49,610 nt of DNA, from assembly GCF_003334305.1 (NCBI RefSeq), contig NZ_QOWS01000028.1. One strand, given 5' to 3'. This document shows positions 45,742-49,313 of this stretch, piece by piece (within the stretch, counting starts at the first letter, position 1; each line of letters starts with the position of its first letter). The notes beneath the pieces were generated by a model. That model did not search any database, had not been told where the DNA came from, and saw only the letters and a program-made list of their open reading frames with translations. Both the position numbers and the translations under genes were made by a program. The stretch comes from Escherichia coli (lineage in GTDB: Bacteria; Pseudomonadota; Gammaproteobacteria; Enterobacterales; Enterobacteriaceae).

Positions 45742-46230
45742 TTACCAGTTGAAAGTAGGTAAACCCGGCAGGCATTCAGCGCTGGCATCCAGATGAATGA
45801 GACTGACGCCATAACGCCGGATAAGTGTGACAACCAGACGGCGGAACATTTTTGACAGCCCCAGGCGTTTAAGCCGCAGAACCGGGTATGACCACGCATC
45901 GGTACGTAACAGATATCCGCTACCTGTAAAATGAATCCATTCTGATTCGCCGAAGTCACTGGTCTGGTGTGACAGCGAGTACAACCAGGCGTTGTCTATT
46001 TCCGTGATATGTGCGGTGCTGCAGCGTATGCCGGTAAGGGTTGTTAACGGTGGTGGTGTGCAGGTTGACTGTTGGTCGGAGTCGTCCACCACACGGAGTG
46101 AATAACCGTTTTCAGCGACCTTGTTAATCAGTTCAGTGAGATTAACACCATCGACGTCAACGACAATTCGCCCCATGTTCAGCGCCTGCACGTTAACGCT
46201 GTCGGCTTCCAGTGTCAGGGCCAGTTTCAT
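45742..46230 (-). CDS. YeeW-like protein (DUF5983-like), 162 aa
   Basis: MKLALTLEADSVNVQALNMGRIVVDVDG... matches remembered YeeW N-terminus; its start overlaps the toxin stop (ATGA). Confidence 0.75.
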   Translation of the reverse strand: MKLALTLEADSVNVQALNMGRIVVDVDGVNLTELINKVAENGYSLRVVDDSDQQSTCTPPPLTTLTGIRCSTAHITEIDNAWLYSLSHQTSDFGESEWIHFTGSGYLLRTDAWSYPVLRLKRLGLSKMFRRLVVTLIRRYGVSLIHLDASAECLPGLPTFNW

Positions 46231-46604
46231 TGTTGCGCCTCCGGATGCTTACCCTGGGTAATGTTATTTACCATTCTGTAATTGTCGCGGGTCATCAGGC
46301 CTGTTGCCCGGCGAGCCCGGAGGATATCGATGCTGTTTATTAACTGAGAGCGGGTACAGGCGCTGAATCCTGGCTGGTCAGTTCGTACCAGCGCGTATTT
46401 TTCCACGAGAAAGTTCACCGCATCACACAGTGAAATGCCTGCCTCAATATGCTGCTCAATCACACGTTCATCGGTGAACGGTGTGTCATTCAGCGTGAGG
46501 CCGTAGTGCTGGTCCAGCAGTCGGGTGAGCAGTGTCTGCCAGATGGTGACGGGAGACGGGCAGCGCGATGCCTCCCGTACGTGTGTGTCGGGTAATGTGT
46601 TCAT
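46227..46604 (-). CDS. CbtA/YeeV-family type IV toxin (125 aa)
   Basis: ...SPVTIWQTLLTRLLDQHYGLTLNDTPFTDERVIEQHIEAGISLCDAVNFLVEKYALVRTDQPGFSA... closely matches remembered YeeV/YkfI/YpjF toxins. Confidence 0.9.
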   Translation of the reverse strand: MNTLPDTHVREASRCPSPVTIWQTLLTRLLDQHYGLTLNDTPFTDERVIEQHIEAGISLCDAVNFLVEKYALVRTDQPGFSACTRSQLINSIDILRARRATGLMTRDNYRMVNNITQGKHPEAQQ

Positions 46605-46693
46605 ACTGAAGATTTTCCTGATATGTAGAGATAAAAAACGGGACAGTGGCGTGGTGAAAACACTAGGCTGGAGCAGAGGGTTATTCCGGTGGT

Positions 46694-47062
46694 TTACGTT
46701 TTCGTTTCGGGCGTCGGATAAACAGCCAGATAAACGTAACCACAGGAGCCGAGGGTGTCGGCTTCACAGGTCAGCCCCTTCGCATACAGTGTCACGGTAT
46801 GCTGATGGCGGGGATTCAGTTCACCGCTGGTGAGCATGAGTTCCAGTTGTTTCATCAGCAGCGGAAAGGCCTGGTCCAGGTGGTATGCATCTGCATCGCT
46901 GAACCGGCCTCTGATACCGGCGCGGTCGGCAAGGTAATGCAACCGGTTACCCTTCTGCACCAGACGTGCCCCGAAACAGGGCGTCACGGTGCAGGGCAGT
47001 CCCCACCAGAGGCGGTCGTGATTGTCGTCGGGATGCGTTGTCCCGGGCAGTGTGTCTGACAC
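46694..47062 (-). CDS. CbeA/YeeU-family antitoxin (about 122 aa)
   Basis: Core ...SDTLPGTTHPDDNHDRLWWGLPCTVTPCFGARLVQ... matches remembered YeeU. ORF 46694..47125 has an N-terminal extension; a GTG start near 47062 aligns with the family N-terminus, so the start is uncertain. Confidence 0.85.
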   Translation of the reverse strand: MSDTLPGTTHPDDNHDRLWWGLPCTVTPCFGARLVQKGNRLHYLADRAGIRGRFSDADAYHLDQAFPLLMKQLELMLTSGELNPRHQHTVTLYAKGLTCEADTLGSCGYVYLAVYPTPETKT

Positions 47063-47135
47063 GATAAAGTCCTCACAGAAATCAGTTAAGAATGGTCCGG
47101 TGGCAGCGATAATTCGGCTCATCATTTCTCCTGAC

Positions 47136-47357
47136 TCAGTTCAGAGTGACGCTCATCAGCCGGACATACGGGCCAAAACTGTCCTTACGGCGTTCAGCAA
47201 ACACGGCCAGCACACCGGGAATATCCTGTACTTCACGACCGGTATACGTCTCAGCACTGCCGTGCCAGCGGTACTTACCGGTGCAGAACGGAAAAAGACG
47301 GGATGCCGGATGCTGACGGTGAATACGCATGGCTTCACCACGGGTGATGATTTTCAT
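47136..47357 (-). CDS. YeeT-like DUF987 protein (73 aa)
   Basis: MKIITRGEAMRIHRQHPASRLFPFCTGKYRWHGSAETYTG... matches remembered YeeT. Confidence 0.85.
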   Translation of the reverse strand: MKIITRGEAMRIHRQHPASRLFPFCTGKYRWHGSAETYTGREVQDIPGVLAVFAERRKDSFGPYVRLMSVTLN

Positions 47358-47425
47358 AGTGTGATACCTCTGAAGACAAAAGATAAAAGTGAAAACAGGT
47401 GTGATGTGGTTGTGACGGTGACGGG

Positions 47426-47902
47426 TTAAAGCAGACCGTGTTCCGCAAAAGAGAAAACCTGACTGCCACCAACTATCAGATGGTCCGGTACCCGGATATC
47501 CACCAGGGCCAGTGCCTGTACCAGACGTTCCGTGATAAGGCGGTCTGCCTTACTGGGGGTGACTTCACCGGACGGGTGATTGTGTGCCAGCACCACGGCT
47601 GCGGCATTGTGATACAGGGCGCGTTTAATCACTTCCCGGGGATGAACTTCCGTGCGGTTGATGGTGCCGGTGAAGAGGGTTTCACCGGCAATCAGCTGAT
47701 TCTGGTTGTTCAGATACAGCACCCGGAACTCTTCCCGCTCCAGTCCCGCCATGTTCAGAATCAGCCATTCCCGTGCCGCACGGGTGGAGGTGAAGGCCAC
47801 GCCGGGTTCATGAAGATGGCGGTCCAGGGTTTTCAGGGCCCGCAGAATGAGACTGCGCTCGCCGGGCGTCATCTCTCCGGGCAGAAAGGAAAGCTGCTGC
47901 AT
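47426..47902 (-). CDS. RadC-like JAB/MPN-domain protein (YeeS/YkfG family)
   Basis: JAMM-like HNHPSGEVTPSKAD motif; start taken at MQQLSFLPGE (ORF extends to 47917). Confidence 0.88.
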   Translation of the reverse strand: MQQLSFLPGEMTPGERSLILRALKTLDRHLHEPGVAFTSTRAAREWLILNMAGLEREEFRVLYLNNQNQLIAGETLFTGTINRTEVHPREVIKRALYHNAAAVVLAHNHPSGEVTPSKADRLITERLVQALALVDIRVPDHLIVGGSQVFSFAEHGLL

Positions 47903-47917
47903 TGTCCCTGCCTCCAT

Positions 47918-48403
47918 TCAGTCGATAATGCGCATAATGGCGCTGCATTCCGGATGCTGCAGGGCGTAATCCCGCAACCGGTAATAATGGACCGTCATGG
48001 CATAATTCTCCGTACGACAGGCATGATGGCTGTACGTCATCAGACAGGCAGCAATACCGGCGGCTTCCGGGCTCATTTCAGCGCGGTTACCGTTCATGGC
48101 ATTGAACAGTACCCATGTTTCGTCATCATCGTCATCCGGTTCGGGTGCCATAAATGCCCCGCCGTTGTTCAGGGTGTACAGATTCCAGATACCACCGCAG
48201 TAGTCTTCGCACAGACGGTCCATCCAGCCGAAGACACGGGGCTCCAGGGTCACCCACTGTGGAATGAGGCCAAAATGCTGCGGCCAGAAGCTGATGCGCT
48301 GTTCATCAGGGACGAGAGTAGCAACCAGCTGAGGTGGGTTATTCCCTGATGCAGCGGTTACGGAAACAGAAGGTGTGGTGGAATTATGCGTAACGGTTGT
48401 CAT
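47918..48403 (-). CDS. Antirestriction protein, KlcA/ArdB-like (YfjX/YafX family), 161 aa
   Basis: Acidic stretch EPDDDDDETW and overall similarity to remembered YfjX/YafX. Confidence 0.85.
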   Translation of the reverse strand: MTTVTHNSTTPSVSVTAASGNNPPQLVATLVPDEQRISFWPQHFGLIPQWVTLEPRVFGWMDRLCEDYCGGIWNLYTLNNGGAFMAPEPDDDDDETWVLFNAMNGNRAEMSPEAAGIAACLMTYSHHACRTENYAMTVHYYRLRDYALQHPECSAIMRIID

Positions 48404-48494
48404 GAGATTATTCCTTATAAAAAGTAAATGAATGGAAGAATGTCCGGAGGCAGGGACGGAAGTGAGTCAGGACTGCGCTTTCAGGGAAAAGGCA

Positions 48495-49313
48495 TCAGCG
48501 CATGTTCTCCAGCAGTGTTTCTGCCATCACCCACAACGCCCGGTTGAGCTTAATGTCGGTGTCGATGCTGTGAATGGTACGGGTATGGATACGTTTTCCT
48601 CTGGCACTGCGACCGGAAATCCCGCCTTTCAGCATATTCTCCTGGATGGTCTGATAAGCACTCCACAGGTCCTTACCGTAATCCTCCCGGCGTCGTGGCG
48701 TCAGAATGTCGGCGGTGGTGACGGGCTGATGTTCGTCACCATAACGGTAAGTCAGTGCCGCCTGTGCCAGCGCCTGGCGTGACGGTGGCGGCAGGACCAG
48801 CGACTGCATGGCATCACGCTTCTCCTCTATCCGGTCAAACACGCCCACCACCTCGTAAGCCCCTTCGATAACTTTCTCCACCACATTTCCCCGGTGTGGA
48901 ACACGCACTTCCCCCAGAGACTGGCCACAGACGCACCCGTTCTGGCAGACGAACCTGAAGTAACCCGGCAGCATCTGGTAGCTGGAAGTACCGTCATGGG
49001 AGTTCAGCAGGATGATTTCAGGGACATGTTGTCCGTTTATCTCCCCGTCACGGCGCAGACGCAGCATGTGTTTGGTGTATCCCCGGCGGCCCGGGTCGCG
49101 CACGCGGATCTGGCAGGCGAAGAAGGGCTGAAAGCCCTCCCGCTGCAGGCTTTCCAGTACGGTGATGGTGGGAATGTACGCATAGCGTTCACTGCGGGAG
49201 GTATGCCGGTCTTCCCCAAAAATACTGGGCACATAGTGCATCAGTTCTTCATGTGTCAGCGGGCGGTCACGGCGTATCTGGTTTACATGACCAAAACGAC
49301 TTGCTAATCGCAT
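48495..49313 (-). CDS. DUF932-like protein (YfjQ/YafZ family), 272 aa
   Basis: Intact ORF; family recognised from memory of CP4-57/CP4-6 homologs. Confidence 0.8.
   Translation of the reverse strand: MRLASRFGHVNQIRRDRPLTHEELMHYVPSIFGEDRHTSRSERYAYIPTITVLESLQREGFQPFFACQIRVRDPGRRGYTKHMLRLRRDGEINGQHVPEIILLNSHDGTSSYQMLPGYFRFVCQNGCVCGQSLGEVRVPHRGNVVEKVIEGAYEVVGVFDRIEEKRDAMQSLVLPPPSRQALAQAALTYRYGDEHQPVTTADILTPRRREDYGKDLWSAYQTIQENMLKGGISGRSARGKRIHTRTIHSIDTDIKLNRALWVMAETLLENMR

Follow-up and report, generated by a model that had tools for sequence, protein, structure and literature searches.

Five genes are conserved near the att sites of the CP4 elements of Escherichia coli K-12 (PMC5371832). Both CP4-57 (yfjQ ... 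lfgA-lfgB-ypjJ-yfjZ-ypjF) and CP4-6 (yafZ ... yafX-ykfG-ykfH-yafW-ykfI) carry this same five-gene core by the att site, with a DUF932 gene upstream and a P4-type integrase, and CP4-44 carries yeeS-yeeT-cbeA-cbtA-yeeW. The CbtA toxin binds FtsZ, via the H6/H7 loop, and MreB, such that both division and elongation are blocked (PMC5624674). The RadC paralog of CP4-57, LfgB, is reported to be a protease (PMC10846083). Described here is a related string of genes on the minus strand of a 49,610-nucleotide stretch of E. coli DNA (contig NZ_QOWS01000028.1 of assembly GCF_003334305.1, called the window), which encodes a CbtA-type toxin and a CbeA-type antitoxin. The string is very probably the backbone terminal module of a P4-integrase-type pheV island, in a compact version of the CP4-44 type, with nine co-oriented genes that run into attR.

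A nine-gene string at the end of a pheV island

Six consecutive open reading frames (ORFs) were placed on the minus strand at 46227-49313 by a preliminary description of the window, and their presence there is confirmed by the ORF listing, by Pfam and by the RefSeq annotation of an identical record, from which the start sites are taken. The description had limited the module to these six genes, which are real, but the string consists of nine and continues to the island end (Table 1). From the 5' end, the order is DUF932, ArdB-type antirestriction, RadC-like, DUF987, CbeA antitoxin, CbtA toxin, DUF5983/YeeW, DUF957 and DUF4942. All six of the proteins described first match their own Pfam family over essentially the whole model (i-Evalue 1.4e-35 to 1.5e-61, in a scan run on two concatenated polyproteins), and the identification of the six genes is far beyond chance. 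The DUF957 protein gave no Pfam match in the polyprotein scan. NCBIfam has a model for the RadC-like protein alone and none for the other eight of the nine; the score with TIGR00608 is 149.9 bits, with a cut-off of 133.85. The six family assignments made earlier were all recovered by Pfam, with the correction that the "KlcA-like" protein is better called ArdB-type.

The six genes have no frameshifts or internal stops, and their products align end to end with their K-12 paralogs; for the toxin and antitoxin, which had been thought intact, this means two full-length proteins that match CbtA and CbeA throughout. The nine reading frames are likewise intact, with plausible ribosome-binding sites. 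The dN/dS ratios against the K-12 paralogs range from 0.05 to 0.35 across the six genes, and the top values, found in the comparison with CP4-44, are those of the toxin (0.35) and the antitoxin (0.30); dS is saturated in the comparisons with more distant K-12 paralogs. The CbtA/CbeA family is under purifying selection. The stop codon of the toxin gene and the start of the DUF5983/YeeW-like gene share 4 bp (ATGA, 46227-46230), which suggests translational coupling. A 303-aa ORF on the plus strand, at 47438-48349, was taken for a shadow ORF, given that the two genes on the opposite strand both match their families strongly.

In the chromosome of E. coli A7 (NZ_CP028767.1) the region is found with 100% identity, and the RefSeq annotation of that record has the same genes. 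About 110 bp past DUF4942, and beside the type II secretion system (T2SS) gene yghD, lies a direct repeat of the 3' end of tRNA-Phe (pheV) that marks the island boundary, so that the terminal position given to the module earlier is upheld. At a distance of 46 kb from attR, the chromosome has tRNA-Phe (pheV) and a tyrosine integrase, which shares 35% identity with IntA of CP4-57 along its whole length (E 7e-79). Since attR lies by the last gene and tRNA-Phe with a P4-type integrase at the far end, the module is the attR-proximal end of a 46-kb P4-integrase-type pheV island next to yghD.

Table 1. Features of the gene string and its borders, in window coordinates
Feature	Coordinates	Strand	Basis
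IS3-family element end	49534..49610	-	IS3 transposase stop annotated at 49542-49544; homology to IS-free relatives stops at 49533-49536
Strong hairpin with T-run, 13 bp GC-rich stem	49353..49382	-	Terminator scan; 40 bp upstream of DUF932 start
DUF932 protein, 272 aa, first gene	48495..49313	-	Pfam PF06067 9e-50
ArdB-type antirestriction protein, 161 aa	47918..48403	-	Pfam PF03230 1.4e-35; PHROG anti-restriction protein 2e-64
RadC-like JAB/JAMM metalloprotease, YeeS type, 158 aa	47426..47902	-	Pfam PF04002 2.8e-43; TIGR00608
DUF987 protein, YeeT type, 73 aa	47136..47357	-	Pfam PF06174 5.1e-38
CbeA/YeeU-type type IV antitoxin, 122 aa	46694..47062	-	Pfam PF06154 5.7e-53
CbtA-type toxin, 125 aa	46227..46604	-	Pfam PF06755 1.5e-61
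DUF5983/full-length YeeW-like protein, 162 aa	45742..46230	-	Pfam PF25638 5.8e-30, PF19419 5.6e-19
DUF957 protein, 65 aa	45533..45730	-	RefSeq annotation of identical record
DUF4942 protein, 280 aa, last gene before island end	44606..45448	-	Pfam PF13708 1.2e-65
attR, direct repeat of tRNA-Phe (pheV) 3' end	44474..44495	-	17/17 exact, then CACCA with one G missing

Comparison with the CP4 elements and with other islands

The pairwise comparison with CP4-44, CP4-57 and CP4-6 that had been proposed was carried out, and the kinship holds, with the string of the CP4-44 type (86-98% identity for the CP4-44 proteins, against 61-82% for those of CP4-57 and CP4-6). The order and orientation of genes are the same as in CP4-44 from RadC to YeeW, with the window proteins 98% identical to YeeS, 96% to YeeT, 93% to CbeA and 86% to CbtA. 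The YeeW-like protein is 82% identical to the truncated YeeW of K-12, which has 64 aa where the protein here has 162. CP4-44 also shares the 4-bp overlap of the toxin and yeeW genes. A spacer of 88 nt between cbeA and cbtA is specific to CP4-44, as it is 20 nt in both CP4-57 and CP4-6 (PMC5371832); the spacer in the window is 89 nt.

There are differences as well. CP4-44 has yeeR where the window has DUF932 and ArdB, it lacks the DUF957 and DUF4942 genes that the string possesses, and it has no integrase (PMC5371832), whereas the island of the window has one. In the window, DUF932 is contiguous with the core, but about 6.4 kb of other genes come between the two in CP4-57 and about 2 kb in CP4-6. 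The preliminary description held that the six genes reproduce the module of the CP4 elements: this stands for the kinship and for the five-gene core, which is found in the order antirestriction, RadC, DUF987, antitoxin, toxin, and fails for the contiguous six-gene order, which occurs in no CP4 element of K-12. That compact order is the common form in other E. coli islands. The same nine-gene string adjoins yghD in the pheV island of strain 23CRST001, with 99.9% identity, and the toxin-antitoxin pair of E. coli 536 is 99.9% identical to that of the window.

The near-identical relatives also show what is missing here. In relatives free of the insertion sequence (IS), at pheV and at another chromosomal site, an Ag43/Cah autotransporter gene and a gene for a YeeP-like GTPase precede DUF932; the pheV-island relatives keep both, whereas the island of the window has IS3 and unrelated cargo (pgt, fimbriae and Druantia). 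The IS3 element (L001 25243-26420) is co-oriented with the module and ends 220 bp upstream of DUF932, which leaves 220 bp of a native Ag43-DUF932 spacer of about 327 bp, and it has taken the place of the Ag43 and GTPase genes that usually lie upstream. Its end was placed from where homology to the IS-free relatives stops; terminal inverted repeats of IS3 were not reported in L001 25000-26800. A remnant of a GTPase gene of the YfjP/YkfA type was looked for upstream of DUF932, and none was found.

The toxin and antitoxin

The antitoxin gene lies directly upstream of the toxin gene on the same strand. It begins with GTG, preceded by a GAGGA Shine-Dalgarno sequence, although the mechanical ORF extends to 47125. 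Matches to solved structures include PDB 2INW (7e-79) and 2H28 (YeeU, 1.2e-77). CbeA neutralises the toxin without binding to it, by bundling FtsZ and MreB filaments.

The toxin covers positions 1-112 of the 112 of the CbtA_toxin model. By alignment, it certainly retains the FtsZ determinant F65, which is invariant across CbtA, YpjF and YkfI, and substitution of F65 abolishes FtsZ binding in all three of those toxins (PMC5624674). The N-terminus is different: K-12 CbtA, from CP4-44, has S14-R15 and the window toxin has R14-C15, so that R15, the determinant of the MreB interaction of K-12 CbtA, is absent. In K-12 CbtA, the change R15C leads to specific loss of MreB binding, and filaments replace the lemon-shaped cells (PMC5624674). 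The preliminary description had expected a CbtA cell-shape defect on expression of the toxin. With Cys15 in the toxin, and with MreB binding lost in the R15C form of K-12 CbtA, that expectation is uncertain and not a safe prediction.

R15 does not define the family, as C15 is the natural residue in YpjF and YkfI. MreB is still bound by YpjF despite its C15, and neither of these two toxins is altered by C15R (PMC5624674). The N-termini of natural toxins were surveyed across 45 clusters with a body at least 85% identical to residues 20-110 of K-12 CbtA. The form found in the window, '...DTHVREAS[R/H/G/C]C', is present in 26 of the 45 clusters and about 76% of member sequences; the K-12 form, '...VLPGQAASSR', is present in 18 of the 45 and about 24% of member sequences. 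The window toxin thus has the common natural N-terminus, and the K-12 CbtA that has been studied is the minority form. The idea that Cys15 is a loss of function at the MreB interface was not kept as a firm conclusion, given that C15 is the natural majority and that YpjF with C15 binds MreB.

The toxin also has the change A44T (nt 46475), which is absent from near-identical relatives. It is a private nonsynonymous single-nucleotide polymorphism (SNP), one of only 4 differences from strain 23CRST001 in 5234 bp, and none of the 77 cluster representatives with a scorable position 44 has it. The substitution is probably tolerated, because position 44 varies among the paralogs (A/S/C).

The antirestriction, RadC-like, DUF932 and DUF4942 proteins

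The antirestriction protein is near-identical to PDB 2WJ9, the ArdB of E. coli CFT073 (E 4e-97; shared family PF03230), with 3 substitutions in the folded region, residues 26-161, and about 25 N-terminal residues that differ. KlcA (PDB 2KMG), with PF03230 in common, is only a distant relative (E 1.6e-20). In the paper on the 2WJ9 structure, ArdB is said to block type I restriction in vivo. The RadC-like protein has an intact JAMM motif, HNHPSGEVTPSKAD, at residues 107-120, with the metal site H-x-H-x7-S-x2-D.

The DUF932 protein is 73% identical to both YfjQ and YafZ of K-12. Its AlphaFold model has a pLDDT of 93.9, a search for relatives among solved structures found none, and its conserved residues are H82, E99, N104, H106, C123, N125 and H140. 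The protein may be an enzyme, as yet uncharacterised, that serves the establishment of the island.

The DUF4942 protein has no sequence relative in the PDB. A weaker PHROG match, to a family labelled 'DNA methyltransferase', was observed over residues 84-280 (1.7e-15). Upstream of the DUF4942 gene there is a terminator-like hairpin (45505-45479) with a promoter-like site (the pair spans 45505-45447), seemingly its own. For the nine proteins together, matches to PADLOC defence-system families numbered 0 at E <= 0.01.

Proposed function and expression

By analogy with the described homologs, the CbtA-type toxin would block FtsZ and possibly MreB, the CbeA-type antitoxin would counteract it at the level of the filaments, ArdB would block type I restriction, and the RadC-like protein would act as a JAMM protease. 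In this strain, the toxin and antitoxin may be co-expressed at balanced low levels and be phenotypically silent, and ArdB, perhaps together with DUF932, RadC and DUF4942, would come into play chiefly as the island moves into a new host. Although nothing contradicts the identification of the genes itself, several points weigh against this account. Its functional parts are transferred from homologs, and the DUF932, DUF987, DUF5983, DUF957 and DUF4942 proteins belong to families without a functional assignment. The toxin has both Cys15 and the private A44T. A consensus scan upstream of DUF932 and of ArdB found no convincing sigma-70 promoter on the coding strand, and what looks like a terminator stands 40 bp before DUF932. 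The CP4-57 operon is reported to begin at the antirestriction gene, with MqsA bound 245 bp upstream (PMC10846083); upstream of the ArdB gene of the window there is no detectable similarity to the CP4-57 promoter region, and neither the MqsA site ACAT-N2-ACAT nor the palindrome occurs within 400 nt. The hairpin at 49353-49382 may terminate read-through from upstream, which leads to the question of where the promoter of the module lies.

One answer would be that there is none: the string may have lost its promoter when IS3 replaced the upstream region, and be an unexpressed and slowly decaying relic. The location of IS3 220 bp upstream, the loss of the Ag43 and GTPase genes of the relatives, the hairpin in front of DUF932, the lack of a promoter match upstream on the coding strand and the private nonsynonymous change in the toxin all fit with this. 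Yet all nine reading frames are intact and, since no more than 4 SNPs in 5234 bp set this copy apart from the IS-free relative, the IS3 event is recent and decay cannot be judged. Two thirds or so of the native spacer remains, internal promoters are plausible given that in CP4-57 the antirestriction gene is described as the first of the operon, and transcription from the co-oriented IS3 transposase gene could read through into the string. A relic of this kind is considered quite improbable.

The absence of the CP4-57 control region bears on a further proposal, which is that the host has co-opted the module for its stress response. For CP4-57, the RadC-like protease would degrade MqsA, so that rpoS is derepressed, and the toxins would influence biofilm formation and the tolerance of oxidative stress. 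Degradation of MqsA by LfgB (YfjY), and protection by it from H2O2, have been reported (PMC10846083), and K-12 is less resistant to oxidative stress once its three toxins are deleted (PMC5371832). The RadC-like protein of the window is 78% identical to LfgB, with the JAMM motif preserved. Because the regulatory region is not conserved, with neither the MqsA-bound promoter region nor the two MqsA motifs found here, the stress role of LfgB and MqsA is not transferable to the window module. In addition, the effect was shown for the CP4-57 paralog only, and the authors note that a contaminating protease activity is not strictly excludable (PMC10846083). Such a role is held to be very unlikely for the module, which is better regarded as island backbone.

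Distribution of the module

Homologous modules were found in 5395 of 5426 complete E. coli genomes, at a median of 4 places per genome, with 20,508 chromosomal places versus 450 on plasmids. The toxin-antitoxin pair alone is present in 4930 genomes, at a median of 3 places, and only 7 of its 13,563 places are on plasmids. The A7 chromosome has three module-like places and, at megablast level, at least one further CbtA/CbeA copy. The block was found in 27 of 72,556 plasmid records, several of them chromosome-sized, and in 1 of 50,697 phage records, that one being an unannotated 3.2-kb fragment. Phage structural genes are absent throughout the annotated island. The origin from a cryptic prophage that the preliminary description had assumed is therefore not borne out, and "cryptic prophage" is only a historical name for an integrative island.

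The additional copies are of consequence for the idea, put forward in the preliminary description, that CbtA/CbeA forms an addiction module, which would stabilise the island by killing or arresting cells that lose it. Stabilisation is a classical role of toxin-antitoxin pairs, and the pair is intact on a mobile island that still has its integrase and both att sites. A type IV antitoxin, however, acts on the target rather than on the toxin, and no type IV antitoxin is known to turn over faster than its toxin. In K-12, either of the paralogous antitoxins YafW and YfjZ can neutralise the toxins YkfI and YpjF, which are paralogs as well (PMC5371832). Given such cross-neutralisation by paralogous antitoxins, a resident copy on the same chromosome could rescue cells from loss of the pair in the window. 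The literature that was searched yielded no experiment on island stabilisation by the CbtA/CbeA family. Addiction is therefore regarded as unlikely, and the pair is treated as part of the backbone terminal module.

Other features of the island and the window

The cargo between the module and the integrase comprises a Druantia system, fimbrial genes, pgt genes and several IS elements. Outside the window, at L002 27490-38829, the same pheV island has a complete Druantia druA-E anti-phage system, along with ISEc18, a frameshifted pseudogene for a phosphoethanolamine transferase, a fimbrial operon and pgtABCP.

A 17-bp motif, GGGTATAATTG[C/A]GGGTA, is found in direct orientation near both island ends, at 44550-44566 on the minus strand and at L002 23033-23049. 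The first copy is 54 bp before attR; the other lies between tRNA-Phe and the integrase start, 127 bp from the former and 54 bp from the latter. The motif has a pair of GGGTA half-sites, spaced 11 bp apart, as well as a promoter-like match, TATAAT, and could be an arm-type binding site for the integrase or a promoter.

A terminator-like hairpin follows attR (44465-44437). With a permissive threshold, an Rfam scan gave only two sub-threshold matches at the level of chance. One was to the Pseudomonas small RNA (sRNA) P9 at 44439-44525 on the minus strand (24.6 bits versus a gathering score of 43, E 0.045), and it most likely reflects the tRNA fragment of attR and the terminator hairpin that it overlaps.

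Elsewhere, a core-genome part at about 10145-16410 (L008 9110-15375) contains a cluster of genes annotated as a fatty acyl-AMP ligase, an epimerase/dehydratase, an acyl carrier protein and a serine palmitoyltransferase. Extra lptF/lptG paralogs adjoin the acyl-AMP ligase cluster, and the stretch includes a low-GC kilobase (0.417, 16001-17000).

Implications

The cassette is already known: it is annotated by RefSeq, near-universal in E. coli and ordinary. Work in K-12 and CFT073 has already dealt with its toxin-antitoxin pair, antirestriction protein and RadC paralog, so that it has little weight as a discovery. It is of use as a marker for the attR end of the pheV island in the window, and it displays the loss of the usual Ag43/GTPase part to IS3.

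For the toxin family, the comparison with homologs allows for a further reading. Most natural toxins of the CbtA clade, that of the window included, could be division inhibitors that act on FtsZ only, with the dual-target CbtA of K-12 as the exception. This reading of the Cys15 toxins and that of DUF932 as an enzyme of island establishment were rated jointly, and the two together are speculative and doubtful. Given that K-12 CbtA carries the minority N-terminus, the published dual targeting of FtsZ and MreB may not hold for the common alleles.

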